From assembly GCA_045612145.1 (NCBI GenBank), contig JAZKYN010000136.1, positions 1 through 63,871 on the forward strand: a stretch of 63,871 nucleotides of DNA, written 5' to 3'. Shown piece after piece: positions 18,838-47,527 of the stretch (position 1 is the stretch's first letter; each line of letters starts with the position of its first letter). A model generated the notes under the pieces. That model searched no databases, had not been told where the DNA came from, and worked only from the letters and a program-made list of their open reading frames with translations. Source of the DNA: Bacilli bacterium (lineage in GTDB: Bacteria > Bacillota_I > Bacilli_A > ML615J-28 > CAG-313). Made by a program: the position numbers and the translations under genes.

Positions 18838-18838
18838 A

Positions 18839-31904: not shown

Positions 31905-31926
31905 AATTTCACCTTCTTTCTTATTG

Positions 31927-31955
31927 ATTATACCAAAAAACTTGTTTTTTTGCAA
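31927..31955 (-). promoter_or_regulatory. sigma-A type promoter of rsmE-mtaB-helicase-nfo
   Basis: On the minus strand, TTGCAA (31950-31955), a 17-nt spacer, then TGgTATAAT (TATAAT at 31927-31932). It lies immediately downstream of the giant-gene terminator. Confidence 0.55.
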
Positions 31956-31970: not shown

Positions 31971-31999
31971 GAAAAAAAGGATATCCAAAAGGATATCCT
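31971..31999 (-). terminator. rho-independent terminator of the 4103-aa gene
   Basis: AGGATATCC-AAAA-GGATATCCT hairpin 12 nt below the stop (32011-32013), followed on the minus strand by a T7 run. Confidence 0.75.
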
Positions 32000-32010
32000 A
32001 ATTTTAGATA

Positions 32011-35000
32011 TTATCTACCTACGTATAAACCTTTAACCATTGAAGCTAATGTAATAGTTTGAGTTTGACCATCTTTAGTAATAGTTACTGTGTAAGTTAC
32101 ACATGTAGTTTCACTTGGTTGTTTAACAACTCTACCATTATCAGCAACGATATCAGTATTATTAGATTTCATAGATACTTCGTATCCTTCGAATTCTGTC
32201 ATCATTGTGTATTCAGATTCTACTAATTGTAAGAATTCACGCCAAATTTCACAATCATTTTCTAACATAGGTTGAGGACAGTTTTTACCAGAGAAGAAAT
32301 GATGTCCTTTAACTCTAGTCATATCTAAATCATTTCTAATCATAATGTCAGCAACTAATTGAGCAGTAATTTGCCATGTGTACCATAAGTCAGAACCTTT
32401 GTTTACACATGATTCAATACCGATTGAATTATAGTTACCACCACTTGAACAGATACGTCCTTCATATACTTGAGTATAGCACCACCATGTAGTACCCATA
32501 TAGTATTTACCATTTTCAACTTTCCATGGAAGACCCATATCATTGATAAATGATTCAGGAGTTCTATTAGCAAATCCAGATTGAGCGAATGCAGGTTGAG
32601 AAGAAATTGTACCATCAGCATTTAAGATATGATCTGTTCCTCTTGAACTATAGTTCCATGGTTTAGGCATTGGAATAGTAGTTTTTTTGCCATTGATTTC
32701 GAAATAGAAATCATCAGAAATTGTGATTACAGGTTCAGCTGGATCATTTGCTAATACTTCAATTCCAGTTTCCATCCATTTGAAATCACCAACTTGTGCA
32801 CGTGAACCAGAGTCACCAGCATGGAATGCAACATATTTTTCATCTGTACAATAGAAGATTCCATCGTTACCAGTTGTATAATGAATTGATGCAGCATTAG
32901 TAGTTGAGAAGTAGTTTGCATTTGCTGCAGCATCTGCACCAGATGCCATATTACCTGTATAGTGAACAGTTACCCATTCAACAGATGACATTTCACCACC
33001 ATTGTATGCAGTTTCTTGAGTTTTTGCATAGTATTTATCGCTAATAGTTAATTTATAGTTAGATAATAATTTAGAAACACTTCCAAAGATATCCATACTA
33101 TAAGCTCCACCGATATTTAAGTTATATCTAGTGAATACATTACTATTATTAGATTCAACAACTAATTCTAAAATTCCTTCAAGAGCTTCTTCTAATACAA
33201 CAACAACAAATTCTAATGTTAATGTTTCATTATCAGGGTCTGTTGCAACAATCTTAGCTTCACCAGCTTTTAATGCTGTAACAACACCGTTTGCATCAAC
33301 TGTAGCAATTTCAGGAGTTAATGAAGTCCATAATACATTTGCATTTGTACCATCTTTGCGAACAACTTGTGCATTTAATTGAATGCTATCGTCTTTTTCA
33401 ACGTATGAGTTTGTAGCGTAAGAACCATCAATATAATCTTCTGTATAAACAGTTAAATCAAATACAACGTCAATTTCACGGTTACCATATACTTTAACAG
33501 TAATAGTTGTTGTACCATTTGCTAAAGCAGTAATTAAACCTTTATTAGAAACTGTAGCAACTTCTTCATTACTTGAGAAGAATTCAACACTCTTATCTGT
33601 AGCGTTATCTGGAGCAATTGACCAAACTAATTGATGAGTTGTGAATAATAATAATTCAGTAACTTTATTAATTTCGATTGTAGTAGGTTTTACTTCTTCA
33701 GCCCATTTAGCATAGAATGTCTTATCACCAGTATCTGTTGATACAATTTGAGTAACAGGTTCACCATTGAATTCAGCATTATCATACCAACCTAAGAATT
33801 CAAGTCCATTTTCCATATGTAATGCAGGAAGAACTACGATTTGTCCACCACGGTAAGATGTTGGAATTTCTTGAGGAATCTTAGCTGCAGAACACATTTT
33901 TGGTAAGAATGATTTATAATATCCTTCACCAGTAGATGTCCATTGTAAGAATTGATGCATTCTAACCATTGTAGCATATGTATCAGTATAGAAGTTTTGA
34001 TCAGCATTAACACCTTTCATAGCTTCTGCGAATACTACGAAGAAATCAGACCATTTTTGATAGTATTTAGGAACATTTAAGAAATATTCTGTGCTACCAT
34101 CTTCTGCAGGATAATTACCTAATTCAGTATTACGTAATTTAATATCAGTATATGCAGCTAATTGTCCATCAATGTATGCTTTGTAATCTTCGAATGATTT
34201 AGTTTCTCCATTGCCTTGAGCCCATTCATATAAGTCAGCATATAATGCATCATAGATTTCGAATCTATCATATGCAGCACGTGAAGGCCATAAAGCATTA
34301 TCTTTGTTAGTAACAAATTCAACATTATAAATTTCACCTTCTAATACTGTGAAATCAGCAACTAATTCTAAGTTTCCTTTAGAATTTGCAGGAATTTCAA
34401 TTACTAATTCTCCATTTAATAACCAACCATTAAATTGGTGATTAGCTTTTGTAAGAGAAGGTAATGCGATAACCGCGTTATTTAAACTATTATAGTTATA
34501 AGTAAATGAATCTCTTGTTGAACCACCATTTAAATCATATGTGATAACCCAGAATTCAACAGTTTCTACTTCTGGTAAAGTTGGTTCAGAACCAAGAATA
34601 GTACCTTTAGTTTTTACATCAATAAAGTATTTATTTAATGTTTCTAAATCTGTAATAGCGTTACCATCATTGTCTTCATAATAGTTAGCACCAAAGATTG
34701 TATTGATTGGAGCAGTTGAATCATTATCACCTGATGTTCCATTTCTTGATGCGAAATAGTATGCATCTGGTAATCCAATGAATTTATTATTTAATACATT
34801 AACAACCCATGTACTTGAAGCATGGTTAGCAGCAGTACCATTGTTACGAAGTCTGATGTAATTTAAGCATCCTTCGAAGTGGTTGTTTTCAATATTAATT
34901 GTTGCACCTTTTTCTTGATAGTTACGTGCAGAGATTGCACCTGAGTATAATCCAGCATCTTTTGTACCAATATTAACGAATTTATTACCTTTAATATCGA

Positions 35001-38000
35001 TTGTAGTGTCATTAATGTTACCACCACCATAAATACGGAAGTAAATACCATTATATCCACCTAAAGTATCTTGTAAGAATTCATTATTAGTAAATGATAA
35101 GATACCATTATTGTATCCACCGTGATTAAATCTAATAGCATCACGTTCAAAGTTTTTAAATACGTTACCATCAAATGAAACATTTTGTACATAAGCTAAG
35201 TTAACGTTTGTATCTGAAACATTTTCAAATTTATTATTAAAGATAGCTAAATTTAATACTTGAGTAGAAGAAGATCCACCATTTAAGTACATAAATCCAT
35301 ATGTATAAGTATTAGTTTCAACCCATGCATTTGCAGCTTTTGTTGTATCATGTACATAGTTATTTTCAAATGTGAAATTAACTACTTGTCCACCAGAAAT
35401 TTTAGCATCACCAGTGAATGCAAGACCAACTAATTTTAAGTTTTTAGCAGCAGCAGCAATTTTAACAGCACCTGTTAATACAGCTTCAGCTTCTCTTACA
35501 CCTGAATTAGGGTTAACATATTGGTTAGGACCAGCAATTGTTAAGTTAGGAACTTTTATTTCAACATCTTCAGCATATGTACCAGCCATTAAGATAATCT
35601 TATCACCATCTTTTGCAGCAGCTAAAGCTTCAGCAAGAGTAGCATAATCTAGACCTTCACCAACATATAAAGCATCTTCTTTCCATGTAGCAACTAAAGT
35701 AACATCACCAGTTTGACCAATAGCTAAACTTTCAACGATTTGACCATTTAATGTCCAACCTAAGAATACATATTTGTCTTTAGTAGGAGTAGGAAGTTTT
35801 GCAAGACCAAGTTCTGAACTATAATATTCAGGAGCATTTTCAACTTCACCACCATTTAATTCATAAGTAATTTTGTATGAATTTTCTTTATCTACATATT
35901 GAGGAACTTCATCTTCATTTGCATAATAAGGATCGTATGTTGCATTTAAGAATGAACTTGCAAGAACTGCTACATCATAGAAGTTATATCTTGCATCAAT
36001 ATTATAAGCACATGCATTATTAATAAAGTATGTTGCAGAACAATTTAATAATTTATTATAGTTAACTGTAACTGGTTGAGTTTCAGCATTTCTGTTTGCA
36101 TTTGCATCTGATCTGTATAATGAATAAGAATTATCTACAGTATTGTATGCAAAGTTAACAGGAGATTTACCATCAGCAGCACCACTATAAGTTCCCATTC
36201 TTACAGCACAGTGAGAACCAGCTGTTTGACCATTATTTAAGAATGTATTATTAACAATTTCATAATTACCTTCTTGATAGTTAATGAACCAAATAACATA
36301 TTGAGCAAAGTTTTCGAAGTGGTTACCAATGATTTTAACATCACCTTTGATACCGAATTCACCTTTATGTGCATCAGCATCATCAGTTGTAATTTTAATA
36401 GCATCATTGTAATTTTTTCTACTTACATTGAAGTTACTATTTTTAATAGTTAATCCATCGATTTGTCCACCGAAGAAAATCATTGGACGACCATTTGTAA
36501 CGTCTGTTTGTTTAATATTTGAAATAACGATATTTTCATATACAGCACCAGCAGTGTATGTATAGAAGAATAATGGAGCATTTGTTGACCATGTTTCAGG
36601 GTTAGTTAATGAATCTTGAATTACAACGTTTGTAATTGTAGGATTAGCAACACCATTATCATTACCTTTAATACGTCCATTTTCAGTTAATTTAATACCA
36701 TCGATTGTAACATCATTAGCACTAATTACAACATCACCAGTAAATACTGTTTCGTTAGTTCTTTCAACTTGGTTAGGGTTAACACCAGCGTTAGCACCTA
36801 AAATAGTAACAGATTTTGTAATATTAATTGTTGTATAAGTACCAGCAGCAATTTTGATTGTATCTCCATCAACTGCAGCTTCTAATGCTTCTTCAAATGT
36901 TGCATATGCATCAGGATTATTAGCATCAACAACTAATTCTTTTGCAGGAACATCTAATTTATTCCATGCAGCATATAAAGTAACATCTTCTTCGCAATCA
37001 GCAGCGATTGATGTAATAGCTTGTGTACAAGCTTCATCAGCAAACCAACCTAAGAATTCATATCCAGCTTTTGTTGGAGTAGGAAGTGTTGCAAGACCAA
37101 CACCTAAAAGATAATCTTTAGGAGCACCTTCAGGAAGTTTACCACCATCTAATACATAGTTAATAGCTTTAGCAGTTTCAGCTTCCCATTTAGCAACTAA
37201 TTCATAATCTCTATTTTCAAGTTTTTCAACTAAAGTTTCACCTTCATACCAACCTAAGAATTTATATCCTTCACGAGTAGGAATAGGTAAAACAACAGCT
37301 TCATTATAACCAAATTCTACTTTAGCTCCTTCAGGTAAAATTCCTTCAGCAACATCGTAAGAAATTGTATATTTTAAAGTAGCAGTATCAACCCATTTTG
37401 CAGTTAATGTGCAATTTGATCTAACAGCTGTAACTAAATCTTCACCAATATACCAACCTAAGAATAAATGACCTTCTTTAACTGGAGTAGGTAAAGCATC
37501 TTTAGCACAATAAGTATTATCCATATCGCCTAATAGAGCATTAAATCTAGCAATATTTTCAGCAACTGAGTAATCTACCATATAACCATCGTACATACCT
37601 TTTTCAGCAGGAGCAAGATTTTCATTAATTAAACCTTGAATCCAATAACGGAAGATAGTTCTTGCATTACCACCATCATTAATATTAACAGCATTTACAT
37701 CACCAGCGATCATACCATCTAACATTTTGAATAAGTCAGTGTAATATTCATTACCTAAGAAGTTATTAGCAGCAGCTGCAGCTTGCATTTCAACTTTTGC
37801 AAATTCAAAGAACCATTTATATTTAGCAAGCATTTCTGCATTACTCCAAACATATTTAATATTTGGATGAGATGTTCCTTTGAAGTTTTCTTTTGTAGTT
37901 ACTTTAGCATCAGATTTACCTGTGCTATTAAAATCTTTTAATAATTCTTCAGCAAATGAATTTAAATCTTGACCTTCCCAATGACCACCATCAAGTTCGA

Positions 38001-41000
38001 ATTCAACTGTCCATTCGTAGTCATCGATATGAATCCATTCAGCAACTAATACATCATCACCAGTTGCATTTTGAACTTTTACACCATCTAAATACCAACC
38101 TAAGAAAATATAATTTTCTTTTACAGCTACTGGTAATTCTTCATTTGGTTCAACAGTTCTTTGAACTGGGCAATAAACATTAGTGAATTTTTCCATATTA
38201 TATTCATTAGAGAAATCTAACATAAATGGATAATCACCATTACCAACAATCTTATGGTTCATTAAACCTTCTAACCAGAAACGGAATGCAGTTCTACCTT
38301 CAGCATATGAACCACCAATTGTAGCAGTATTACCAGCGATTAAACCTTCTAACATTTCAACTGTATTTGTATAACGAGCAGATTCAGTTACACCATTTGC
38401 TTCACCTGCAGCTTTGATTTCTTCAAGTGCAAATACAAATAACCAATGATATTTTTCTAACATTTCTGTATTATTAAATACATATTTAATATTTGGATGA
38501 GAAGTTGATTTAAAGCTTTCTCTTGTAGTAACAACTGCATCACTTGCACCAGTACTATTGAAATCTTTAACTAATTCTTCAGCAAATTGATCTAAATTCT
38601 TTTCAAATTGACCACCGTTTAAATCGAAGATTACTTCGTAACCAGTTTGTCCAATTTCTTTCCATTTAGCAGTTAATTTATAATTTTCATTACCAATTTT
38701 ATTAACATATTCGCCTAATTGTGTCCAGCCTAAGAATTCATATCCTTCTTTAACTGGTTCAGGAATTACAACTTCTTGTCCATATTCAAATGATGTAGGT
38801 CCTTCTGTTCCTTCTAACCATGAACCTTCATTTAAATCATATTGAATTTCAAATTTAATAATTTCCCATTTAGCAGTTAAACTAGCATCACCAGATACTT
38901 TTTCAACTTTATCATCACCATCAAACCAACCTAAGAAGATATAACCAGTACGAACAGGAGTTGGTAATTTATCTTCAACAGATAATTTAAATACGCTGTT
39001 TTGAGCAGCTAAAGCAGCTTCAAATCTTTCCATATTTTCAGCAACAGAGAAGTCAGTCATGAATGGATAATCGCTATTACCAACGATTTTTTTGTTCATT
39101 AATCCTTCTAACCAGAATCTGAAAGCAGTTCTACCTTCAGCATATGAACCACCAATTGTTGCAGTATTACCAGCAATTAATCCTTCTAACATTTCAACTG
39201 TATTAGTATAACGAGCTTCACTTGTAGTACCATTAGCTTTTGCAGCAGCTTTGATTTCTTCAAGCGCTAATACAAATACCCAATGATATTTTTCTAACAT
39301 TTCAGCTTTATCAAATACATATTTAATGTTTGGATGAGAAGTAGCTTTAAAGTCTTCTTTAGTAGTAACTTTAGCATCACTTGCACCAGTGCTATTGAAA
39401 TCTTTAACTAATTCTTCAGCAAATGCATCTAAATCCATACCTTCAACGTTAAGAGCACCACCTTGTGCATCTAATGCAACATTATATTTAGCAGCTTCCC
39501 ATTTAGCAACTAATGTTGCTTCATAAGTAGCAGTTTCTACTTGAGTTTCACCATCAAACCAACCTACAAATACATAATGTTCTCTTTCGATTGCAGGTAA
39601 TTTTGCACCATGTTCTAATACTTGAGATGGCATAGATGCTCCACCTTCTTGAACATCATAGAATTTTTGTAAATTTTCAGCAACAGAGAAGTCAGTCATG
39701 AATGGATAATCTTTATTACCAACAATTTTTTGGTTCATTAATCCTTCTAACCAGAAACGGAATGCTGTTCTTCCTTCAGCGTAATCTCCACCAATTGTTG
39801 CAGTATTACCAGCGATTAATCCTTCTAACATTGCAACCGTATTAGTGTAACGAGCTTCACTTGTAGTACCATTTGCTTTTGCTGCAGCTTTAATTTCTTC
39901 AAGCGCAAATACAAATACCCAATGATATTTTTCTAACATTTCAGCTTTATTAAATACATATTTGATGTTTGGATGAGATGTAGCTTTGAAATCTTCTTTA
40001 GTAGTAACTTTTGCATCGCTTGCACCAGTACTATTGAAATCTTTAACTAATTCTTCAGCAAATTCATCAAGAGTAAGAGGTTCAGAATATTCTGTACCAT
40101 CGTTGTAATCAAAATAAATTTTATATTCATTAACTTTCCATGTAGCAACAAGTGTTAAAGCACCTGAAGTACCAGCAGGTATCTTATCGATTTTTTCACC
40201 ATTTAATTCCCATCCTGTGAATGTATAACCTTCACGTAATGGATCACATAAAATGATTTCATCTAATTTGCTATATTTATCAGGATTTGAATCACTATTT
40301 GTACCACCGTTTAATTCATAAGTAATTTCAAATCTTTCAGAGATATATTTTGCCCATAATTCGATATCACCAGTTGTTCCAAGAGGTAATTCATAAATAG
40401 CTTCACCAGTTAATTCAGCATTAGTATACCAACCAGCAAATTCTTGACCAGCAGGAGCACCAGGGATTGCAAGAGTATAAGGTAAATCTTCAACAGTATA
40501 TGTTGTTGGAGCAAGAACTACTTCTTCATGAATTAATTCAAAATGATCCCATACTTTACCCCAAACTTCTTCTGATGTATAGTCACTACCATAACCAGCA
40601 GTAACACCAGCATCTTTAGAAGATCTTGTTAATAAGTTTTGAAGTTCTCCACGAGCTTCAGCTTGACCATCGTCTTTTGTTAATTCAGCAGCACCACGAG
40701 CAACACGTGCTTCATTAATGATAACTAATAATCCATTCCATTTAGCACCGTATTCAGCACTTGTTAAGAAGTTATAACCAGCACTTGAACCATCGCCCAT
40801 ATAAGATCTTGCAAAGAAGTCAGATCCATCAGATTTAACTACTTTACCAGAATGTTTGTTGAAATCAACAACGAAATCAGCAACTAATGCAGCCCAATCA
40901 GCGTAATCACCAACTTGAATTGTGATAGTAGGAAGAGTACCTTCACCAGCATTATATTTAATTGAATATTCGATTGCTTCCCATGCAGCGTAAACTGTTT

Positions 41001-44000
41001 TTTCGCCTTTATCTAAAGCAGTGAATTCAGTTACTGCTACTGTGCAAGCAGCGTCTAAGAACCAACCTTTAAATTCATATCCTGAACGTGTAGCACCTTT
41101 AGAAAGAGCAACACCAGTTTCTTCAACGTATGATGTAGGAGCACCAGCTTCTAATGCACCACCGTTTAATTCATAATTAATAGCATAAGTATCAAATGCG
41201 ATTACTGAATCAGACCATCTAGCATATAAAGTAATATCGCCAATTAGATCTAATGAAATAGCTTCTACTTTACCATTTTTAAGATCACTATTTGTATACC
41301 AACCAACAAATGTAGCATCCTTTTTATTAGGAGTAGCAAGTGCAACTGGTAAATCATTAATTGTATATTCGTTTACAGCTTCAGTACCAACTTGAATGTC
41401 TTTATTAGGACATGCAGCCCAGAATGCTTCACCATCAACTTCTTTAAAGTTTAGAGAAACTGGAGAAACAGATGTTAACATTGTTTCTTGTAATAAAGCA
41501 GCAAAGTTAGATCTTGCATATTTATTAAAGTTAGCAGCACCAGCAGTTAATGATAAGTAAGCTTTACCTGTATATCCTGCTTCTGCAGCATATTCAGCAA
41601 CATATTCTAATACCCAACCCCATTTAGCAGCCATTTCAGCGTTATTGAAGAATGAGTATAATCCGTATTTAACTGATTTACCGTAGAAGTTAGCAGCAGT
41701 AACATCAGCAACACCAGTTAATGTAGCATAATCATTAATGAATTCAGCAACGAATGCATCAAATGAATCGTATAATTCAGCAACTTCGTCTCTAACGAAT
41801 TGTCCACCATTTAATTCATAAGTAATTTCATAAACTGTTAATTCCCATGCAGCATATAATTTAACACTTTCAAGTAATCCAGCTTCGATAGCTTCAACTT
41901 TTTCAGTGCATGCAGCATCAGAATACCAACCTAAGAATGTATAACCTAATTTAGTAGGAACAGGAAGAGTAGCTAAACCTTCAGCGTATGTAAATGATGT
42001 AGCAGCACCTTCTGGTAATACACCTTCATTTAATACATATTCAACAGCAATTGGATCATGAGACCATTTAGCTTCTAATACAACATCTTTAGCGATTAAA
42101 GCATTGATAGTTTCAACTTTTTCACCATTTAAATACCAGCCTAAGAATTCGTTTCCAGCTTTAGCAGGAACTGGTAATGTGATTTCGCCATCAGTATAAA
42201 TGAATGAAGTTACAGGATCAACAGCACCTGGTTTTTTAACTAAATCCCAGAAACCATTTCCGATAGCATCTAATGAATAATCAGCAGTTACATAATTTTT
42301 ATTTTTTGAATATTGAATAGCACCAACAAAACCTCTTAATTCATAAGCAATTGAGTAAATATAGTTACTATTTGCAGCATTTAACTCTGATTGACTATTA
42401 TATTTATTGAAGTTTTCCCATGCTTTTTTATTAGCAGAACCAGCTACGCTTGTAATATAATCTACTAACCAAGCCCATTTAGTTCTATATTCAGCATTAT
42501 ATAAGAATAATGATGCATCACTAATTTCACTCCAAGAACCTAGAGCTGAGAATGTTGCAGCTGTATGAGATTTACCTCTTGCAGTATTATAATCATTTAA
42601 GAAATCAGCAACTAATTCTTCACGAGATGAATATAAATAATTGCTTAATAATCCACCATTGTAGTTATATGTGATTGTATATTGATCAAGTTCAAATTTA
42701 GCAGTTAATTCAATATCACCAGCAGAACCTTTTTCAATTTTTTCAACTTTATTACCATCAGCATCATACCAACCTAAGAATTTTTCACCAAGTTTGTAAG
42801 CAACAGGTAATTCGAATGTTTCTGTATTAACTGTGAAAGTATTTACTAATTCAAAATTTAATAATTGATCCCAGAAACCATTAGCTAATTCATCATTAGT
42901 AAAGTCAGCACTCTTTGGCCAGCTTGCGCGACAATCTTCAAATAAGAATGCACCTAAAGAATATCTCCAGAATGCTTCACTACCACTGATTAAGCTATCT
43001 TTGCTTCCGCCTTCAGTAGACTCGATGATATAGTCTTTTAACCAAGCCCATTTAGCAGCATATTTAGCATCTGAGAAGAATCCATAAATAGCACTAAATA
43101 CGTTAGCGAATCCATATGCGTCTCCTGAATCATCAACCATGCAAGTAGGTTTGTTTGTTTTACCTGCCCATGCCATAGCATCATTTAAGAAATCATCAAC
43201 CATAGCAGCACGATCTTTACCATATTCATATAAATCACCAGGGTTAAGTGACCAGTCACCACCATTTAAGTTATATGAAATAGTGTATTCAGCTAATTCC
43301 CATTTAGCAACTAATTCAACGTTACCAATAGTTAATTTTTCAACTTTGTTTTCACCAGCATACCAACCTAAGAAATTATATCCATGTTTAGTTGGAGCAA
43401 CAAGAGTAACAGGAGCATCAACAACTGTGTATGCAGTTGGGTTAGTTTCAGCACCTTCACCACCAGCTAAATCATAACTTACAGTGTAAGTAATAATATC
43501 CCATTTAGCATAAAGTGTTAAGTCTTCTCTTGCATCAGCAGGGATTTCTGTTAATGCTTCACCAGTAAATGCAGCGTTATCATACCAACCAGCAAATGTA
43601 TAACCTTCTTTTGTAGCTTCAGCTAAAGCGATAGGAAGATTAAATACGTTGTAACCAGCAGGGTTAGTAGCAGCATTTGTACCACCGTCTAAAACGTAGT
43701 TAACTGTGAAATCAGACTCTAAAACTTCAAGTTCAAATTTATATGTACGATATTCTTCTTCGTATAATAAATTTTCTGCAACAACTGTAATAGTTACTTT
43801 ACCAGCTTTTAAAGTAGTAATTAAACCATTTTCATCGATTGCAGCAACTTCTGGATTAGATGATGCATAAGTTAATTTAACATTTTCTTCTGCTTCTGCA
43901 GGAGTAAATGTGCATTCAACTTGGCTAGTTTTTCCTTTAAGGATACTGCCTTCAGCACCAACAAATTCCATTTCAGGAAGTCTGTCTTGAATAACTGTGA

Positions 44001-44322
44001 TAACAACTGTATCATATGCGATTGCTTTATTAGCAACATATGCTTTTACCACAGTTTGACCAACGCTTACACCAGTAACTTTTGCGTCACTATAAGAAGC
44101 GATTAAATCATTTTGTGAAACGTAAACAAGATCTACTTGTCCAGCAGCTTCACCTTTGTTTACTGTTGGAACTACATCGATAGTTTCACCAACAACGATT
44201 ACATATTCATCAGTATCAAACTTAACTTCAACGTAATCATTAACTTTTGTACAGCTAGCGATACTAACTAGTAAACCAACAATAGTTAATAATAAGAAAA
44301 ATCTTTTTCTAATGTTTAACAT
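32011..44322 (-). CDS. giant (4103 aa) surface lipoprotein. In order: 2 Ig-like domains, 19 Listeria-Bacteroides repeats (9 with a nested helical module), 2 beta-helix modules, 2 more Ig-like domains and a C-terminal Amidase_2-like domain.
   Basis: Uninterrupted 12.3-kb ORF with GGAGA 5 nt before the ATG. Signal peptide with lipobox IASC (Cys24). Recurrent G(Y/x)xFxGW(Y/F)...L(Y/x)AKW repeats. Beta-helix N-caps DGDTIKIAAGTYT and DGDKIILMAGTYA. Amidase motifs VTVHYTGN, AFHAGD, NSIGIE and KNCP. Confidence 0.95.
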   Translation of the reverse strand: MLNIRKRFFLLLTIVGLLVSIASCTKVNDYVEVKFDTDEYVIVVGETIDVVPTVNKGEAAGQVDLVYVSQNDLIASYSDAKVTGVSVGQTVVKAYVANKAIAYDTVVITVIQDRLPEMEFVGAEGSILKGKTSQVECTFTPAEAEENVKLTYASSNPEVAAIDENGLITTLKAGKVTITVVAENLLYEEEYRTYKFELEVLESDFTVNYVLDGGTNAATNPAGYNVFNLPIALAEATKEGYTFAGWYDNAAFTGEALTEIPADAREDLTLYAKWDIITYTVSYDLAGGEGAETNPTAYTVVDAPVTLVAPTKHGYNFLGWYAGENKVEKLTIGNVELVAKWELAEYTISYNLNGGDWSLNPGDLYEYGKDRAAMVDDFLNDAMAWAGKTNKPTCMVDDSGDAYGFANVFSAIYGFFSDAKYAAKWAWLKDYIIESTEGGSKDSLISGSEAFWRYSLGAFLFEDCRASWPKSADFTNDELANGFWDQLLNFELVNTFTVNTETFELPVAYKLGEKFLGWYDADGNKVEKIEKGSAGDIELTAKFELDQYTITYNYNGGLLSNYLYSSREELVADFLNDYNTARGKSHTAATFSALGSWSEISDASLFLYNAEYRTKWAWLVDYITSVAGSANKKAWENFNKYNSQSELNAANSNYIYSIAYELRGFVGAIQYSKNKNYVTADYSLDAIGNGFWDLVKKPGAVDPVTSFIYTDGEITLPVPAKAGNEFLGWYLNGEKVETINALIAKDVVLEAKWSHDPIAVEYVLNEGVLPEGAATSFTYAEGLATLPVPTKLGYTFLGWYSDAACTEKVEAIEAGLLESVKLYAAWELTVYEITYELNGGQFVRDEVAELYDSFDAFVAEFINDYATLTGVADVTAANFYGKSVKYGLYSFFNNAEMAAKWGWVLEYVAEYAAEAGYTGKAYLSLTAGAANFNKYARSNFAALLQETMLTSVSPVSLNFKEVDGEAFWAACPNKDIQVGTEAVNEYTINDLPVALATPNKKDATFVGWYTNSDLKNGKVEAISLDLIGDITLYARWSDSVIAFDTYAINYELNGGALEAGAPTSYVEETGVALSKGATRSGYEFKGWFLDAACTVAVTEFTALDKGEKTVYAAWEAIEYSIKYNAGEGTLPTITIQVGDYADWAALVADFVVDFNKHSGKVVKSDGSDFFARSYMGDGSSAGYNFLTSAEYGAKWNGLLVIINEARVARGAAELTKDDGQAEARGELQNLLTRSSKDAGVTAGYGSDYTSEEVWGKVWDHFELIHEEVVLAPTTYTVEDLPYTLAIPGAPAGQEFAGWYTNAELTGEAIYELPLGTTGDIELWAKYISERFEITYELNGGTNSDSNPDKYSKLDEIILCDPLREGYTFTGWELNGEKIDKIPAGTSGALTLVATWKVNEYKIYFDYNDGTEYSEPLTLDEFAEELVKDFNSTGASDAKVTTKEDFKATSHPNIKYVFNKAEMLEKYHWVFVFALEEIKAAAKANGTTSEARYTNTVAMLEGLIAGNTATIGGDYAEGRTAFRFWLEGLMNQKIVGNKDYPFMTDFSVAENLQKFYDVQEGGASMPSQVLEHGAKLPAIEREHYVFVGWFDGETQVETATYEATLVAKWEAAKYNVALDAQGGALNVEGMDLDAFAEELVKDFNSTGASDAKVTTKEDFKATSHPNIKYVFDKAEMLEKYHWVFVLALEEIKAAAKANGTTSEARYTNTVEMLEGLIAGNTATIGGSYAEGRTAFRFWLEGLMNKKIVGNSDYPFMTDFSVAENMERFEAALAAQNSVFKLSVEDKLPTPVRTGYIFLGWFDGDDKVEKVSGDASLTAKWEIIKFEIQYDLNEGSWLEGTEGPTSFEYGQEVVIPEPVKEGYEFLGWTQLGEYVNKIGNENYKLTAKWKEIGQTGYEVIFDLNGGQFEKNLDQFAEELVKDFNSTGASDAVVTTRESFKSTSHPNIKYVFNNTEMLEKYHWLFVFALEEIKAAGEANGVTESARYTNTVEMLEGLIAGNTATIGGSYAEGRTAFRFWLEGLMNHKIVGNGDYPFMLDFSNEYNMEKFTNVYCPVQRTVEPNEELPVAVKENYIFLGWYLDGVKVQNATGDDVLVAEWIHIDDYEWTVEFELDGGHWEGQDLNSFAEELLKDFNSTGKSDAKVTTKENFKGTSHPNIKYVWSNAEMLAKYKWFFEFAKVEMQAAAAANNFLGNEYYTDLFKMLDGMIAGDVNAVNINDGGNARTIFRYWIQGLINENLAPAEKGMYDGYMVDYSVAENIARFNALLGDMDNTYCAKDALPTPVKEGHLFLGWYIGEDLVTAVRSNCTLTAKWVDTATLKYTISYDVAEGILPEGAKVEFGYNEAVVLPIPTREGYKFLGWYEGETLVEKLENRDYELVAKWEAETAKAINYVLDGGKLPEGAPKDYLLGVGLATLPTPTKAGYEFLGWFADEACTQAITSIAADCEEDVTLYAAWNKLDVPAKELVVDANNPDAYATFEEALEAAVDGDTIKIAAGTYTTINITKSVTILGANAGVNPNQVERTNETVFTGDVVISANDVTIDGIKLTENGRIKGNDNGVANPTITNVVIQDSLTNPETWSTNAPLFFYTYTAGAVYENIVISNIKQTDVTNGRPMIFFGGQIDGLTIKNSNFNVSRKNYNDAIKITTDDADAHKGEFGIKGDVKIIGNHFENFAQYVIWFINYQEGNYEIVNNTFLNNGQTAGSHCAVRMGTYSGAADGKSPVNFAYNTVDNSYSLYRSDANANRNAETQPVTVNYNKLLNCSATYFINNACAYNIDARYNFYDVAVLASSFLNATYDPYYANEDEVPQYVDKENSYKITYELNGGEVENAPEYYSSELGLAKLPTPTKDKYVFLGWTLNGQIVESLAIGQTGDVTLVATWKEDALYVGEGLDYATLAEALAAAKDGDKIILMAGTYAEDVEIKVPNLTIAGPNQYVNPNSGVREAEAVLTGAVKIAAAAKNLKLVGLAFTGDAKISGGQVVNFTFENNYVHDTTKAANAWVETNTYTYGFMYLNGGSSSTQVLNLAIFNNKFENVSDTNVNLAYVQNVSFDGNVFKNFERDAIRFNHGGYNNGILSFTNNEFLQDTLGGYNGIYFRIYGGGNINDTTIDIKGNKFVNIGTKDAGLYSGAISARNYQEKGATINIENNHFEGCLNYIRLRNNGTAANHASSTWVVNVLNNKFIGLPDAYYFASRNGTSGDNDSTAPINTIFGANYYEDNDGNAITDLETLNKYFIDVKTKGTILGSEPTLPEVETVEFWVITYDLNGGSTRDSFTYNYNSLNNAVIALPSLTKANHQFNGWLLNGELVIEIPANSKGNLELVADFTVLEGEIYNVEFVTNKDNALWPSRAAYDRFEIYDALYADLYEWAQGNGETKSFEDYKAYIDGQLAAYTDIKLRNTELGNYPAEDGSTEYFLNVPKYYQKWSDFFVVFAEAMKGVNADQNFYTDTYATMVRMHQFLQWTSTGEGYYKSFLPKMCSAAKIPQEIPTSYRGGQIVVLPALHMENGLEFLGWYDNAEFNGEPVTQIVSTDTGDKTFYAKWAEEVKPTTIEINKVTELLLFTTHQLVWSIAPDNATDKSVEFFSSNEEVATVSNKGLITALANGTTTITVKVYGNREIDVVFDLTVYTEDYIDGSYATNSYVEKDDSIQLNAQVVRKDGTNANVLWTSLTPEIATVDANGVVTALKAGEAKIVATDPDNETLTLEFVVVVLEEALEGILELVVESNNSNVFTRYNLNIGGAYSMDIFGSVSKLLSNYKLTISDKYYAKTQETAYNGGEMSSVEWVTVHYTGNMASGADAAANANYFSTTNAASIHYTTGNDGIFYCTDEKYVAFHAGDSGSRAQVGDFKWMETGIEVLANDPAEPVITISDDFYFEINGKKTTIPMPKPWNYSSRGTDHILNADGTISSQPAFAQSGFANRTPESFINDMGLPWKVENGKYYMGTTWWCYTQVYEGRICSSGGNYNSIGIESCVNKGSDLWYTWQITAQLVADIMIRNDLDMTRVKGHHFFSGKNCPQPMLENDCEIWREFLQLVESEYTMMTEFEGYEVSMKSNNTDIVADNGRVVKQPSETTCVTYTVTITKDGQTQTITLASMVKGLYVGR
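32260..32990 (-). other. C-terminal N-acetylmuramoyl-L-alanine amidase (Amidase_2/PGRP-like) domain with an internal insertion
   Basis: Motif order is EWVTVHYTGN ... SIHYTT ... YVAFHAGD [about 120 aa] NYNSIGIESC ... VKGHHFFSGKNCPQP. In T7 lysozyme and CwlA, as I recall them, the HxGD and NSIG(V/I)E motifs are only about 10 residues apart. Confidence 0.7.
33200..33700 (-). other. two Big_2-like Ig domains preceding the amidase
   Basis: SIAPDNATDKSVEFFSSNEEVATVSNKGLITALANGTTTITV and LWTSLTPEIATVDANGVVTALKAGEAKIVA are typical Big_2 signatures. Confidence 0.65.
33930..34266 (-). repeat. helical-module copy 9 (distal, diverged), nested in the repeat after beta-helix 2
   Basis: Encodes RFEIYDALYADLYEWAQGNGETKSFEDYKAY...PKYYQKWSDFFVVFAEAMKG...MVRMHQFLQW. 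It lies between a YNVEF strand and LPALHMENGLEFLGWYDN. Confidence 0.6.
34620..35690 (-). other. right-handed parallel beta-helix module 2
   Basis: N-cap YATLAEALAAAKDGDKIILMAGTYAEDVEIKVPNLTIAGPNQYVNPN, followed by Asn/Gly-rich coils of about 22-25 aa (NNYV, NNKFENV, DGNVFKNF, NNEF, GNKFVNI, NNHFEGC, NNKFIG). Confidence 0.65.
35930..36950 (-). other. right-handed parallel beta-helix module 1
   Basis: N-cap YATFEEALEAAVDGDTIKIAAGTYTTINITKSVTILGANAGVNPN, followed by repetitive coils (ANDVTIDGI, ITNVVIQDS, YENIVISNI, GLTIKNSNF, IIGNHFENF, VNNTFLNN). Confidence 0.65.
37540..37962 (-). repeat. helical-module copy 8 (more diverged)
   Basis: Encodes NSFAEELLKDFNSTGKSDAKVTTKENFKGTSHPNIKYVWSNAEMLAKYKWFFEFAKVEMQ...YSVAENIARF. 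Confidence 0.8.
38180..38592 (-). repeat. helical-module copy 7
   Basis: Encodes DQFAEELVKDFNSTGASDAVVTTRESFKSTSHPNIKYVFNNTEMLEKYHWLFVFALEEIKAAGEANG...FSNEYNMEKF. Confidence 0.85.
39010..39429 (-). repeat. helical-module copy 6
   Basis: Encodes DAFAEELVKDFNSTGASDAKV...FSVAENMERF. My by-eye alignment to copy 5 shows about 30 mismatches in about 395 nt. Confidence 0.85.
39650..40068 (-). repeat. helical-module copy 5 (first of four recent copies)
   Basis: Encodes DEFAEELVKDFNSTGASDAKVTTKEDFKATSHPNIKYVFNKAEMLEKYHWVFVFALEEIKAAAKANG...FSVAENLQKF. Confidence 0.85.
44251..44322 (-). other. lipoprotein signal peptide of the 4103-aa protein
   Basis: MLNIRKRFFLLLTIVGLLVSIASC has a basic n-region, a hydrophobic core and the lipobox I-A-S-C, with Cys at residue 24. 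Confidence 0.8.
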
Positions 44323-44354
44323 GTTATTCTCCTTTTCGTTTGAATTTACACTTT

Positions 44355-44383
44355 ATTATAGCACTTTTGTAAAAAACTAGCAA
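44355..44383 (-). promoter_or_regulatory. sigma-A type promoter of the 4103-aa gene
   Basis: On the minus strand, TTGCTA (44378-44383), a 17-nt spacer, then TATAAT (44355-44360), about 35 nt upstream of the ATG. Confidence 0.55.
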
Positions 44384-44528
44384 GCGTTTTCATTATATTT
44401 TTAGTATATTCTTTAAACTTTAGTTTAAAAAACGACATTTTTTATTTTCTTAGTATGTTAAATAAAACTATAACAGTCATTTTTTCGTTAAAAAATCCAC
44501 GCAATTTTTTCCTCTTTAAACATCAAAT

Positions 44529-44552
44529 AAAGGAAGTTTAAAAACTTCCTTT
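44529..44552 (-). terminator. second hairpin in the spacer between the two large genes
   Basis: AAAGGAAGTT-TAAA-AACTTCCTTT, with T-rich flanks on both strands. It may act as a back-up terminator. Confidence 0.4.
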
Positions 44553-44609
44553 ATTTCGCCTTTTGACAATTTATTATATCATTATTATTTTTTTAGACAA
44601 GACATATAC

Positions 44610-44637
44610 GAAAAAATAGCAGGTAAAACCTGCTATT
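44610..44637 (-). terminator. rho-independent terminator of the 910-aa gene
   Basis: ATAGCAGG-TAAAA-CCTGCTAT hairpin 4 nt below the stop (44641-44643), followed on the minus strand by a T6 run. Confidence 0.75.
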
Positions 44638-44640
44638 TTA

Positions 44641-47373
44641 TTATCTAAAGAATTCTACATTATCAATAGCTATACGAGCATTTTGATTAGATGTATAAGT
44701 ACTTGAAGCTTCAGTGTAAATTCTTACAAATTTAGCATCAACTAAATCTACAACAATTTCAGTATATTTAGTAGCATCAATTTTGCTAGCTGATCCTAAA
44801 TCTACTGATGTCCAAGTTTTTCCATCTGTAGAATATTGTACTTCAAATTTTTTGATTTTTGAGGCATGCGAACTCTTATCACTTGAACTCCACCAAGATA
44901 CATCAAATTTAATTCTTGACACTGCTTCATTAAATTTAAATTCAAAGAATGAATTTTTTGTACTATTATTTTTTCTTGTAGGGCAAAGAACACCAAAAGA
45001 TCCAGTATTTTTATGAGGAGCATTTGTAGAATTTGTAATTTGAGCTTGATGACCAGTAATTGTAACACTCTTTCCTGATAATTCTTCTTTAACTGATAGT
45101 GATTTATTATTTGTATAACCAGTTAAATTTAAGCTACCAAATGTATATTGTTCACATAATTCAGGTTCTGAAACATAAACATACTCAATTGAAGCAACAT
45201 AAACTGTATAACTTGGCATATTATGAGAAATACTAACATATGTATAATGTTGTGTATCTGGATAAATTTCATAAACAGCTTGACCACTAACTGTAGACAT
45301 AGTTGTTGCGTAATCACTATATGAATTATCTGTACCAAATTCAATTAATAATGCATCTTTATTATTATATCCAGTTCTTCCAGTTGTTAATGTAATTATA
45401 ACTTTTTCTAATTTTTTAGTAAATGCTGTCGCATTAGCAATTGAAGAATGAATATTATTTTTATATCTCATTTGGATATCATCGTTATTATATTTACCAA
45501 GTTGGATGTAATCAAATTTAACACCTGTAATAACTTTTGAACCGTCAGCATAATTTCCTAATCCTAATGCTTCATCGGTAACAACAACAGATTTAACATC
45601 TTCAGGATCTTTAGCAACAATAACAATTTCGTATACTTTAGTTGCAACAGCTTTGTTATATTTGCAAGTACCAACTAATTTGATTACAGCATCACCATCA
45701 AAATTTTCTGGGCGAGTAACTTTTAATACACCGTTTTCGATTTTTGCATTTTCATAATCTTCTGCAAGAGCAAATGTTACATTTTCAACTTGTGGAAGTT
45801 TGTAATCTTCTACTAAATTCTTTTCAATTGAAATATTTTCTAATACTTCTTCACCTCTCATCTCATCTGTTACTAATACTTCTTCATATAAGTGAGAAAT
45901 ATAGTTAGTTGAGCTTGATAAGTAACTTGAGTAACTAGCACTAAATGTTGTATAAGAATTATATGTACCTAAGAATAAAGTATCACTTCCAAGTTTTGCA
46001 GTGAATGTATTGTATTGTTCATTATATTGCCATACAGTTGAAGGACTAGCGTTAAATTTAATGTTATTGTATGATCCACTCTTTTCTAAACAAATATATT
46101 TAACTGATCCATTTTTTAAAGTTAATTTTAAGTAATATCCACCAGTAGTTTCAACAACGTTAAGTTTAGCAGCACTTGCAAAACTTGTTGTAGTTGCACC
46201 ATAGTAACCACTTAATGTACCAGTCATGTATAATGTTTGTTTTTTGTTACCTTGATACATACCTAAAACATAATCTTTTGATGTATCAAATGTTTCAGCA
46301 ACTCTAATTTTAAATTCACCAAATACTGGTTTAAGAGTTAAATCACCACTTGTACCATATCCAATTTCTGTGATTAACGCATCTAATTCTTCATTTGCTT
46401 CACCATTTTCATCAATGATTGCCCATCCTAAGAATCTCCATCCAGTTTGAGTTGCTTTACGTGTTGGTAAATCAAATTCATCAAAATATGTATATTCTAC
46501 TGTTTCTTCAGTATCTGTATAAGTAATAGTATATTTAGCGATTTCCCATTTAGCATAGAATAAATAATCATGTGCATTTGAAGTATCAACAGTTTCAACT
46601 GCATTACCAGCTAAATTTTTATTTCCATACCATCCTAAGAAATTATAACCAGTTTTAACAGGAGTTGGAAGAGTAATAACTTCTTCGCCAGCTCTAAATT
46701 GATTTTCAAATTCTTCTTCTAATTCTCCACCTTCTAAGTTAAGTGTAATATTATAAATATTAAGTACTTTATATTCAAATTTATATTCTAGATATTGATC
46801 AGTATTTTTCTTATCAACAATTTTTGCAGTAAATACAACTTTACCTTTTGCTAAAGCAGTAATGTTACCTTCAGCATCAATAGTTGCAACTTTTTCATTT
46901 GAACTTGAAAATTGCATTTCAACATTTGGATTTTGATGAGAATATTCATAAACTAATTTATTTTCATCACCAATATATAAATTTCCTTCTAAGCCTGCAG
47001 GACCTTCAACATCAAATGTTGCTTCAGGCATATCAATAATTTCATATACATCAATTTCAGCTGTAGCTGCGATATATTTTTTTCCTTCGATCCATACTTT
47101 AACAGTTGTTGAGCCTACGCCTACTGCAGTTAATTCTCCTTCATTACATTCAACAACAGTATCATCTTCAACATCCCATTGGAATTTATAATTTGTTTCA
47201 CCAGCATTTTTTAAAATAGGTTCAAGTGTTAAATTATCTCCTAATTCTAAATCATAGCTAGTTTTCTCAAAATCTAATTGTATAGAATTTGAAATGTCTC
47301 CACAACTTGCAAGTGTAAATGCAAAAGCAAATACTGCAATTAATAAAAACAATCTAATATAATTTTTTTTCAT
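44641..47373 (-). CDS. 910-aa surface lipoprotein. In order: 2 Ig-like domains, 2 Listeria-Bacteroides repeats, an unassigned central region and C-terminal jelly-roll (discoidin/CBM-like) modules.
   Basis: Signal peptide MKKNYIRLFLLIAVFAFAFTLASC (lipobox LASC, Cys24). Big_2-like VATIDAEGNITALAKGKVVFTA. Repeats GYNFLGWYGN...LFYAKW and GWRFLGWAII...LKPVFG. The C-terminus is KKFEVQYSTDGKTWTSV...AKFVRIY...IAIDNVEFF. Confidence 0.9.
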   Translation of the reverse strand: MKKNYIRLFLLIAVFAFAFTLASCGDISNSIQLDFEKTSYDLELGDNLTLEPILKNAGETNYKFQWDVEDDTVVECNEGELTAVGVGSTTVKVWIEGKKYIAATAEIDVYEIIDMPEATFDVEGPAGLEGNLYIGDENKLVYEYSHQNPNVEMQFSSSNEKVATIDAEGNITALAKGKVVFTAKIVDKKNTDQYLEYKFEYKVLNIYNITLNLEGGELEEEFENQFRAGEEVITLPTPVKTGYNFLGWYGNKNLAGNAVETVDTSNAHDYLFYAKWEIAKYTITYTDTEETVEYTYFDEFDLPTRKATQTGWRFLGWAIIDENGEANEELDALITEIGYGTSGDLTLKPVFGEFKIRVAETFDTSKDYVLGMYQGNKKQTLYMTGTLSGYYGATTTSFASAAKLNVVETTGGYYLKLTLKNGSVKYICLEKSGSYNNIKFNASPSTVWQYNEQYNTFTAKLGSDTLFLGTYNSYTTFSASYSSYLSSSTNYISHLYEEVLVTDEMRGEEVLENISIEKNLVEDYKLPQVENVTFALAEDYENAKIENGVLKVTRPENFDGDAVIKLVGTCKYNKAVATKVYEIVIVAKDPEDVKSVVVTDEALGLGNYADGSKVITGVKFDYIQLGKYNNDDIQMRYKNNIHSSIANATAFTKKLEKVIITLTTGRTGYNNKDALLIEFGTDNSYSDYATTMSTVSGQAVYEIYPDTQHYTYVSISHNMPSYTVYVASIEYVYVSEPELCEQYTFGSLNLTGYTNNKSLSVKEELSGKSVTITGHQAQITNSTNAPHKNTGSFGVLCPTRKNNSTKNSFFEFKFNEAVSRIKFDVSWWSSSDKSSHASKIKKFEVQYSTDGKTWTSVDLGSASKIDATKYTEIVVDLVDAKFVRIYTEASSTYTSNQNARIAIDNVEFFR
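44644..45100 (-). other. C-terminal discoidin/CBM-like beta-sandwich of the 910-aa protein
   Basis: The pattern IKKFEVQYSTDGKTWTSV ... YTEIVVDLVDAKFVRIYT ... ARIAIDNVEF resembles F5/8 type C carbohydrate-binding modules. Confidence 0.5.
46330..46775 (-). repeat. two Listeria-Bacteroides repeats in the 910-aa protein
   Basis: YNITLNLEGG...LPTPVKTGYNFLGWYGN...LFYAKWEIAKYTITY...LPTRKATQTGWRFLGWAI...LTLKPVFG. Confidence 0.7.
47302..47373 (-). other. lipoprotein signal peptide of the 910-aa protein
   Basis: Lipobox L-A-S-C with Cys at residue 24, the same position as in the 4103-aa protein. Confidence 0.8.
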
Positions 47374-47430
47374 ACGTATCTCCTTTGTTTTTTCATAAAG
47401 GTATTCGTTTTTATTTTATACCCATCACAT

Positions 47431-47459
47431 ATTTTACCATAATTATATTTTTTTGTAAA
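47431..47459 (-). promoter_or_regulatory. sigma-A type promoter of the 910-aa gene
   Basis: On the minus strand, TTTACA (47454-47459), a 17-nt spacer, then TGgTAAAAT (TAAAAT at 47431-47436). Confidence 0.5.
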
Positions 47460-47491
47460 CAATTTGAATAAAATTAAAATATTTTTTGTAC

Positions 47492-47527
47492 AAAAAGAAA
47501 AAAACAAAGTAGATTTTAACTACTTTG
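47492..47527 (-). terminator. rho-independent terminator of the dnaK operon
   Basis: CAAAGTAG-ATTTTAA-CTACTTTG hairpin spanning the dnaJ stop (TAG, 47520-47522), followed on the minus strand by TTTTTTTCTTTTT. Confidence 0.7.

Follow-up and report, generated by a model that had tools for sequence, protein, structure and literature searches.

In heat-shock neighbourhoods of the Bacillus subtilis type, hrcA, grpE, dnaK and dnaJ are followed by prmA (yqeT), rsmE (yqeU) and mtaB (yqeV). The vlp, vsp and vsa systems of Mycoplasma consist of paralogous lipoprotein genes in arrays; their modules are repeated, and they diverge rapidly and change in copy number. Bacteriolysis by rumen Anaeroplasma has also been described (Robinson et al., 1975, as cited in PMC5165256 and PMC8941964). 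Here we analyze a locus that can be compared with all three: the genes for two large lipoproteins of 910 and 4103 amino acids (aa), named LP910 and LP4103 (the giant), located between dnaJ and rsmE in a stretch of 63,871 nucleotides (nt) from a Bacilli bacterium (contig JAZKYN010000136.1; hereafter the window). The window has a G+C content of about 28%, and nearly all of its genes lie on the minus strand, in the order hrcA, grpE, dnaK, dnaJ, 910-aa open reading frame (ORF), 4103-aa ORF, rsmE, mtaB, DEAD-box helicase, nfo and pyr operon. The order of hrcA, grpE, dnaK, dnaJ, rsmE and mtaB is the same as in the B. subtilis-type neighbourhood, but there is no prmA, two predicted lipoprotein transcription units split dnaJ from rsmE, and rsmE-mtaB has a conserved promoter of its own. 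An earlier reading of these letters without database searches (the sequence-only reading) had taken the block for an accessory cassette. Comparison with relatives indicates that it is very probably an inherited, clade-wide and hypervariable surface-lipoprotein locus of Anaeroplasma-like bacteria.

The best genome match for DnaJ, at 75% identity, was a rabbit-gut metagenome-assembled genome (MAG) labelled 'uncultured Bacilli' (L001); the other genome matches, Izemoplasmatales, Anaeroplasmataceae and Erysipelotrichaceae among them, were at 50% or below. RsmE homologs grade from 91% to 60% identity, and the 60% member is L097, a MAG named Anaeroplasma bactoclasticum. It has the gene order rsmE-mtaB-DEAD-nfo-ispG-HTH-rluA-metK-GH4-BadF in common with the window, at 60–88% amino acid identity, and L095, L099 and L101 share this order with the window as far as argS. 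Per-protein identity to the window was 54–88% in the four relatives that share the rsmE-side order (L095, L097, L099 and L101). Because of the RsmE series and the shared gene order, the window is assigned to an Anaeroplasma-like member of the Anaeroplasmataceae.

A giant ortholog fills the dnaJ-rsmE junction in every relative recovered (Table 1), down to RsmE identities of approximately 60% and DnaJ identities of 72–77%, the range seen in distant relatives (close relatives, 91–95%). Two dnaJ-giant-rsmE junctions are complete (L099/L100 and L101). Four loci show the rsmE side only (L091, L095, L096 and L097, with giants of 3620, 2987, at least 2134 and 2862 aa, respectively), and four show the dnaJ side only (L001, L081, L083 and L086). 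The orthologs range from 2194 to 4105 aa and keep both termini: all giants begin with MLNIRKRFFLLLT…, and the C-terminal amidase is kept too. The single lipoprotein of L099/L100 has the domain order Big_2, Flg_new, Big_2, Amidase_2. Paralogs of the 910-aa type vary among relatives from zero to three intact copies; LP910 homologs (60–98% identity) always lie directly after dnaJ and are absent from L001, L099 and L101. This distribution points to dnaJ, giant, rsmE as the ancestral state of the clade and to the LP910-type genes as a later addition, apparently restricted to the window's own subclade, in which there are one to three intact copies.

The giant is split into two ORFs in L001 (11375–16973; 585 and 1283 aa) and in L101 (914–9935; overlapping ORFs). 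No homopolymer was seen at the sites inspected in either locus, and the splits could be pseudogenes or assembly errors in a repetitive gene.

Table 1. Gene content of the dnaJ-rsmE junction in relatives, with protein identity to the window
Locus	Identity	Order of genes
L099/L100	RsmE 61%, DnaJ 77%, DnaK 90%	dnaJ, one 2213-aa lipoprotein, rsmE
L101	RsmE 67%, DnaJ 72%	dnaJ, giant split 1478 + 1540 aa, rsmE
L097 (A. bactoclasticum MAG)	RsmE 60%	2862-aa ortholog, rsmE
L095	RsmE 68–69%	694-aa amidase protein, 2987-aa ortholog, rsmE
L091	RsmE 88%	3620-aa giant, extra 1252-aa amidase lipoprotein, rsmE
L001	DnaJ 75%	dnaJ, giant-like gene (split), contig end
L081	DnaJ 95%, DnaK 99%	dnaJ, LP908, ISL3 transposase, 3613-aa giant
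L083	DnaJ 95%	dnaJ, LP871, split paralog 218 + 462 aa, 1447-aa gene, giant
L086	DnaJ 91%	dnaJ, LP875, 1033-aa gene, 1444-aa gene, 3634-aa giant

Sequence divergence is faster in the lipoproteins than in most of the housekeeping proteins encoded next to them. In L086, DnaK and HrcA are each 97% and DnaJ 91% identical to the window proteins, compared with 60% for LP910 and 64% for the giant. In L083, the values are 95% for DnaJ compared with 82% for LP910 (N-terminal 598 aa only) and 81% for the giant, and the F5/8-type-C domain of the C terminus is encoded by another paralog. Apart from two differences, an insertion sequence (IS) and the repeat region, L081 runs colinear with the window at 95–96% DNA identity. 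The IS is a 1.55-kb element of the ISL3 family with a 451-aa transposase (L081 5635–7186), located between the LP910 ortholog and the giant, where it replaces 87 nt (window 44553–44639) that hold the LP910 terminator; it is the sole IS found in the locus, and the window has none. The repeat region of L081 is rearranged relative to window 40138–35760, where the duplicated modules lie.

In L091, the extra lipoprotein gene (6133–9891; Flg_new, Big_2, Amidase_2) stands between the giant and rsmE. Over the final 500 nt of the window giant (from 32523 on) and onward into rsmE, the 3′ end of this extra gene runs colinear with the window at 86% identity, and the 3′ end of the L091 giant itself also aligns with the window giant, at 93%. 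This colinearity points to recombination between paralogous amidase modules and suggests that a deletion or duplication arose in that way. The C-terminal 729 aa of the window giant are 64–66% identical to stand-alone lipoproteins of approximately 970 aa, one of which was checked and lies at another locus in another MAG, but only 40–47% identical to three orthologs of the syntenic type, including the L095 giant. A 30-aa segment within the amidase insertion is shared by the window giant with the stand-alone family only. The locus changes by module duplication and loss, recombination between paralogs, swapping of C-terminal domains and IS insertion.

The arrangement of promoters and terminators was largely as the sequence-only reading had it, with the two lipoprotein genes in units of their own, and the elements could be located (Table 2). 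Matches to the promoter-like pattern were fewer than in shuffled sequence (68 compared with 98 expected), so the pattern alone is not evidence; the three promoters are credible because of their position and their recurrence upstream of the same genes in relatives. L081 and L083 have almost the same LP910 promoter sequence, which can still be recognized in L086. The giant-gene promoter sits within a conserved box, AAAACGCTTGCtaGTTTTTTAcAAAAGTGyTATAAT, which across the giants reads AAAACGCTTGCnnGTTTTTTAnAAAAGTGyTATAAT and is followed by the ribosome-binding site (RBS) GAAAAGGAGAATAAC; box and RBS are kept in L001, L081, L099 and L101. Every relative whose full spacer was read has the rsmE promoter, as CTTGCAA-N17-TGGTATAAT in L091, L092 and L094–L098 and with ATTGCAA as the −35 element in L099.

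The dnaJ terminator is present, but to call it strong was an overstatement, with only 3 of its 13 stem pairs being G-C; relatives have a hairpin and T-run at the same site with another stem sequence. The LP910 terminator, listed in the earlier reading, folds well. A second hairpin, which that reading did not list, forms the upstream edge of the conserved leader of the giant gene, and homology to L081, L083 and L086 resumes there, at window 44552–44561. In relatives, a hairpin and T-run always precede the rsmE promoter, with stems that differ between lineages, which is the signature expected of a conserved terminator. The predicted layout of three transcription units is well supported by promoters and terminators conserved in relatives.

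The RBS region of LP910, AAAAAACAAAGGAGAT (window 47378–47393), matches the 5′ side of the stem of the dnaJ terminator (47499–47514) at 15 of 16 positions, which is probably chance in A/T-rich sequence. Comparison with relatives also corrected two gene starts. The rsmE ORF was called from TTG 31988, whereas the real start is ATG 31907, 3′ of the rsmE promoter, and the mtaB ORF was called from TTG 31222, whereas the real start is ATG 31171, one base past the rsmE stop codon, which suggests translational coupling. These two genes form the downstream boundary of the locus, and the order rsmE-mtaB-DEAD-nfo is kept in relatives.

Table 2. Features of the locus in window coordinates (HMM, hidden Markov model; AF2, AlphaFold2; pTM, predicted template modelling score; pLDDT, predicted local distance difference test)
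Feature	Position	Strand	Basis and details
dnaJ	47520–48641	−	Pfam DnaJ, DnaJ_C, DnaJ_CXXCXGXG; final gene of the hrcA-grpE-dnaK-dnaJ unit; bounds the locus upstream
dnaJ terminator	47500–47532	−	pattern scan and folding; ΔG −13.4 kcal/mol, z −5.0; overlaps dnaJ stop codon
LP910 promoter	47431–47459	−	TTTACA-17-TAAAAT, extended TG −10
LP910 (910-aa lipoprotein gene)	44641–47373	−	ORF and Pfam domains
LP910 terminator	44610–44637	−	by eye in sequence, missed by pattern scan; ΔG −14.4 kcal/mol, z −4.0
Second hairpin	44525–44556	−	ΔG −16.2 kcal/mol, z −5.0
Giant-gene promoter	44355–44383	−	TTGCTA-17-TATAAT, extended TG −10
LP4103 (4103-aa giant lipoprotein gene)	32011–44322	−	ORF, Pfam and iterated HMM
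B-repeat array (InlB-type, Flg_new)	36970–43710	−	aa 205–2451; iterated HMM
Helical-insert modules, nine	33709–43305	−	module alignment; example 39502–40143
Duplicated module copies	37762–40073	−	630–840-nt units, 76–91% identical
β-helix domain 1, right-handed (predicted)	35872–36969	−	aa 2452–2817; AF2 pTM 0.80, pLDDT 72.5
β-helix domain 2, right-handed (predicted)	34546–35688	−	aa 2879–3259; 35% identical to domain 1 (alignment)
Three Big_2/Big-like Ig domains	33013–33705	−	approximately aa 3540–3770; Pfam Big_2, Big-like
Amidase_2 (N-acetylmuramoyl-L-alanine amidase)	32203–32997	−	aa 3776–4040; Pfam PF01510
Giant-gene terminator	31978–31999	−	pattern scan; ΔG −16.0 kcal/mol, z −4.9
rsmE-mtaB promoter	31927–31955	−	TTGCAA-17-TATAAT, extended TG −10
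rsmE	31173–31907	−	Pfam Methyltrans_RNA, PUA_4
mtaB	29888–31171	−	Pfam UPF0004, Radical_SAM

Lipoprotein signals were recognized by a positive n-region, a hydrophobic h-region and the lipobox [LVI][ASTVI][GAS]C. Both proteins carry one: MLNIRKRFFLLLTIVGLLVSIAS-C24 (…VSIASC) in LP4103 and MKKNYIRLFLLIAVFAFAFTLAS-C24 (…FTLASC) in LP910. From N to C terminus, LP4103 consists of the lipobox, two Big_2 domains, B-repeats, two β-helices, three Big_2 domains, Amidase_2 and a terminal aBig_2 domain. Iterated HMM searches found 19 InlB-type B-repeats in the whole protein; Flg_new (PF09479) scored 478.6 bits over 14 stretches and TIGR02543 scored 296 bits. Nine of the repeats contain a helical insert of 130–150 aa after the first strand, eight of them in the array and the ninth at aa 3323–3538. 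An AF2 model of a B-repeat with its insert had a pLDDT of 82, and its β part superposes on the InlB B-repeat. The insert itself had no Pfam match (only the flanking Flg_new was hit) and no significant fold match in the PDB with Foldseek, and it is an undescribed domain. It is also widely distributed: full-length matches to the module profile occurred in many proteins of 1000–6000 aa in a library of 1.8 billion proteins.

The AF2 model and its fold matches confirmed domain 1 as a predicted right-handed parallel β-helix. Foldseek matched it to a PL6 alginate lyase (8bwk, E 8e-5) and to the lyase RbmB (9ozl, template modelling [TM] score 0.55), with chondroitinase B, pectin methylesterases, tailspikes and the adhesin PfbA among the other fold matches. 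The β-helix sequence family had no usable match in Pfam, NCBIfam or the PDB, and neither domain alone had a Pfam match; the sole PDB sequence match was a weak one to a pectinesterase (E 0.038). Both domains are thus assignable by predicted fold only, and they may be binding-only.

The amidase domain scored 61 bits (Pfam cut-off 26), and an insertion divides the match into two stretches. In the PDB the domain matched XlyA (3hmb, E 2e-12) and PlyL (1yb0), and the motifs HxT, SIGIE and H…SGKxCP aligned; TVHYTGN, SIGIE and GHHFFSGKNCP correspond to the zinc-binding His/His/Cys and the catalytic Glu/Lys motifs of XlyA 3hmb. These catalytic motifs are invariant in 10 sequences, orthologs and paralogs taken together, and the enzyme is apparently competent, as predicted from their conservation. 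The insertion, 110–140 aa long (INGKxT…, YYMGTTWWCYxQVxEGRICSxGGN), lies between the WHAGD and SIGIE motifs and is conserved in the syntenic orthologs and in the stand-alone lipoprotein-amidases of approximately 970 aa. A phage as the recent source of the amidase was considered and rejected: phage endolysins match over the C-terminal half, and the best matches are 31–43% identical over approximately 80 aa.

LP910 combines PKD/Big_2 domains and Flg_new repeats with an aBig_2 domain and, at its C terminus, an F5/8-type-C (CBM32-like) domain. In the PDB, this C-terminal region had only a non-significant match, to CBM32 (E 0.07). It is 29% identical to the N-terminal 'head' of the giant over about 300–320 aa, and the two are paralogs. 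A lipobox was found in all 12 close LP910 homologs and in 84 of 120 homologs of the amidase module. The C-terminal module of the giant gave 706 homolog matches, and lipoproteins that combine Big_2 with Amidase_2 are common in MAGs of gut Bacilli; the lipoprotein-amidases are a large expanded family. In another gut MAG (L089 5189–19824), three Amidase_2 proteins of 358, 970 and 1394 aa are encoded within 15 kb at an unrelated locus.

The best explanation overall, which we hold with modest preference, is an inherited locus whose giant lipoprotein attacks the walls of other bacteria. The protein would be lipid-anchored in the membrane via Cys24, and its long stalk of Ig-like domains and B-repeats would project outwards. 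The stalk would present two β-helices resembling those of polysaccharide lyases and tailspikes and, at its far C-terminal end, an endolysin-type N-acetylmuramoyl-L-alanine amidase with intact catalytic motifs. This enzyme would cut peptidoglycan outside the cell, most likely in the walls of nearby bacteria or in debris from walls, and LP910 with its CBM32-like domain would be a glycan-binding partner. The purpose would be lysis and nutrient scavenging, in agreement with the bacteriolysis for which Anaeroplasma is classically known. Anaeroplasma is placed in the Mollicutes, and cultured Anaeroplasma are wall-less. If the organism studied here is also wall-less, the substrate of the amidase must be foreign peptidoglycan. 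Bacteriolytic Anaeroplasma strains have been reported (as cited in PMC5165256 and PMC8941964); a search of the literature found no publication that identifies the lytic factor of Anaeroplasma or that deals with amidases in wall-less Mollicutes.

Several observations weigh against an attack on foreign walls. Genes of the mur group occur in 40–60% of Anaeroplasmataceae genomes (PMC10868615), so the enzyme could act on the organism's own wall. The β-helix and F5/8-type-C domains are equally typical of adhesins and of enzymes for host or plant glycans, and TM-scores to lyases are only 0.45–0.55. The MAGs of gut Bacilli in which Big_2-Amidase_2 lipoproteins are common are of unknown wall status, and with 706 matches among them the architecture is not specific to a bacteriolytic lifestyle. 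Finally, 'A. bactoclasticum' on a MAG is a database label and not a phenotype. Foreign-wall attack or scavenging, judged separately as a function, is about evenly balanced at best. A narrower proposal is tentative and on balance unlikely, namely that the giant lipoprotein is the molecular basis of the Anaeroplasma bacteriolysis described in the 1970s, by means of a phage-like kit. A wall-less mollicute would then open its neighbours' walls on contact with membrane-tethered β-helices and amidase, and an arms race with the surfaces of its prey would account for how quickly the locus diversifies.

The amidase might instead be an autolysin for cell separation or wall remodelling in a walled or thin-walled organism, with the repeats serving as a spacer or spanning the wall. 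We consider this improbable, although not negligibly so. The mur genes of the family (PMC10868615) would provide a substrate, Amidase_2 enzymes of the XlyA/CwlA type are classical autolysins of Firmicutes, and the amidase motifs are strongly conserved. However, the 4103-aa stalk puts the enzyme furthest from its anchor, a geometry unsuited to septal work, and Pfam searches found no SH3b, LysM, CWB, SLH or PG_binding domains. The very fast change in sequence and copy number and the extra amidase paralogs at the locus would also be unusual for a housekeeping autolysin.

A role as an adhesin and glycan degrader directed at host or fibre, under diversifying selection and with the amidase secondary, is similarly improbable. 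The locus would then serve chiefly for binding to mucus, plant fibre or host glycans and would vary to escape immunity or phages, and the amidase might, for instance, detoxify or harvest free muropeptides. The F5/8-type-C (CBM32-like) domain of LP910, the alginate, chondroitin and pectin enzymes and the adhesin PfbA among the best β-helix matches, B-repeats of the kind typical of adhesins such as InlB, and lipoproteins that diverge much faster than their neighbours are all consistent with it. Yet no part of the giant is more conserved than the amidase, which every syntenic ortholog retains with its catalytic motifs unchanged, and no phase-variation switch was found. The window contains no recombinase ORF and only short, imperfect inverted repeats that are compatible with chance, and promoter spacers are constant at 17 nt in the window, L081, L083 and L086. 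An invertible promoter or other phase variation was rejected on these grounds.

The origin of the block was examined through prmA, base composition and signs of mobility. The sequence-only reading was right that prmA is absent from the locus: PrmA queries from L009 and L002 (Pfam-verified at 2e-103 and 3e-73) gave no tblastn match in the window even at E≤10, intergenic regions included, and no remnant was found. They also gave no match at E≤10 in the Anaeroplasma-like loci collected when the search was made. Among 80 diverse dnaJ loci, 17 have dnaJ-prmA-rsmE, seven have dnaJ abutting rsmE and two have other content in between. The proposal that the block replaced prmA did not hold, however. 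In L003 (Izemoplasmatales), dnaJ and rsmE are 92 nt apart, and in L010 (Anaeroplasmataceae) a 185-aa ORF of unknown function lies between them; both lack the block and prmA alike. Since the nearest block-free lineages are also without prmA there, it was probably already absent from the site and not displaced.

Composition gave no foreign signal either. The G+C content at third codon positions (GC3) is 0.138 in the giant and 0.096 in LP910, compared with 0.120±0.023 (range 0.062–0.175) in the 43 other genes of the window, and in L099 the giant has 0.125 compared with 0.11–0.19 in its flanks. The total G+C content of the giant gene is raised (33% compared with approximately 28%), but the excess is in codon positions 1 and 2 and therefore reflects amino acid composition; foreign origin on this ground was rejected because GC3 is normal. 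The window has neither an integrase nor direct repeats flanking the block, no tRNA gene lies at the block, and scans for Rfam families and tRNAs gave no hits within it.

What survives of the inserted or replacing cassette is that some 15.5 kb of surface-protein genes interrupt the Bacillus order. A giant ortholog stands at the same junction in every Anaeroplasma-like relative found, which contradicts an accessory, strain-variable or recently acquired element. Orthologs at this junction with indistinguishable composition were what the sequence-only reading had named as refuting it; within the clade this is what is seen, and the block is missing from the junction only in more distant families. 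Horizontal acquisition of a surface-protein cassette that inserted into the dnaK operon and replaced prmA is thus very improbable: its absence from L003 and L010, the 17 of 80 loci with dnaJ-prmA-rsmE and the slightly raised G+C content of the giant speak for it, but orthologs occupy the junction throughout the clade, GC3 is native, the window holds no mobility genes or flanking repeats, and the block-free outgroups lack prmA there as well. Recent acquisition is largely refuted; the block may have been gained once, long ago, in the ancestor of the clade. A break in the synteny of a textbook operon need not mean a recent island, and this one appears to be a clade-defining inherited locus and a hot spot of surface-protein evolution.

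Nor is the block the only region of the window that differs between relatives, as had been supposed. The pyr operon (window 18193–27527; pyrB, pyrC, carA, carB, pyrK, pyrD, pyrF and pyrE) lies between nfo and ispG. In L091, nfo is followed by pyrB, pyrC, carA and carB, but in L094, L095, L097, L099 and L101 it is followed directly by ispG, so the pyr cluster is itself variable. A gene for a 265-aa multi-pass membrane protein (window 52296–53093) lies between a metallo-β-lactamase (MBL)-fold gene and hrcA; at this position L083 has a 220-nt gap and L086 a gene for an AAA_14/DUF4143 ATPase, and it is a second, small variable site. Elsewhere in the window, there is a single tRNA-Arg(CCG) gene on the other strand (9713–9787, +), with ylmE and argS on either side, and the remnant of a division-cluster tail (ylmE, ylmH, ileS) has no divIVA between ylmH and ileS.

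All of the recognizable domain families (lipobox, Big_2, Flg_new, Amidase_2 and the β-helix fold) are known already, as are hypervariable surface-protein loci at fixed sites. The architecture, its fixed dnaJ-rsmE place across the clade, the helical insert and the possible link to bacteriolysis are new, and a literature search found no publication on any of these four points. With a lipid-anchored amidase of the endolysin class and two depolymerase-like β-helices, the locus is a specific candidate for lysis by Anaeroplasma. If this is true, Mollicutes-related gut bacteria would degrade walls in a contact-dependent manner, and the same could account for similar lipoprotein-amidases, which number in the hundreds among uncultured gut Bacilli.

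Compared with the Amidase_2 endolysins and autolysins of phages and prophages, B. subtilis XlyA (3hmb/3rdr) and Bacillus anthracis PlyL (1yb0), the amidase belongs to the same family and has the same His/His/Cys and Glu motifs, but it carries the 110–140-aa insertion, forms the C-terminal part of a 4103-aa lipid-anchored protein, and is accompanied by no known wall-binding domain and no prophage or lysis cassette. Internalin B and other Flg_new/TIGR02543 proteins share the B-repeat, present here 19 times with a predicted β part that fits the InlB structure. Here, however, there is no leucine-rich repeat domain, nine of the repeats are broken by a helical bundle, and the anchor is a lipobox and not GW or LPXTG modules. 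The predicted β-helices are of the same fold class as the lyases and tailspikes 8bwk, Vibrio cholerae RbmB (9ozl), chondroitinase B (1dbg) and the Sf6 tailspike (4urr), with Foldseek E values of 1e-4 to 1e-3 and probability 1.0 to this set, but identity is 10–16%, TM-scores are 0.45–0.55, and no Pfam Beta_helix or lyase match was obtained.

The Mycoplasma vlp, vsp and vsa systems are arrays of the same type with the same rapid change, and the lineage studied here is Mollicutes-related. The differences are that no invertible promoter, recombinase or length-variable homopolymer was found here, that the proteins are 10–40 times larger and include enzyme domains, and that the site is fixed between housekeeping genes. 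Rumen Anaeroplasma, with its reported bacteriolysis, is of the same lineage, and the MAG labelled A. bactoclasticum has a syntenic ortholog of the giant. A peptidoglycan amidase outside the cell is the type of activity that such bacteriolysis needs, which makes the giant lipoprotein gene a candidate for this phenotype.

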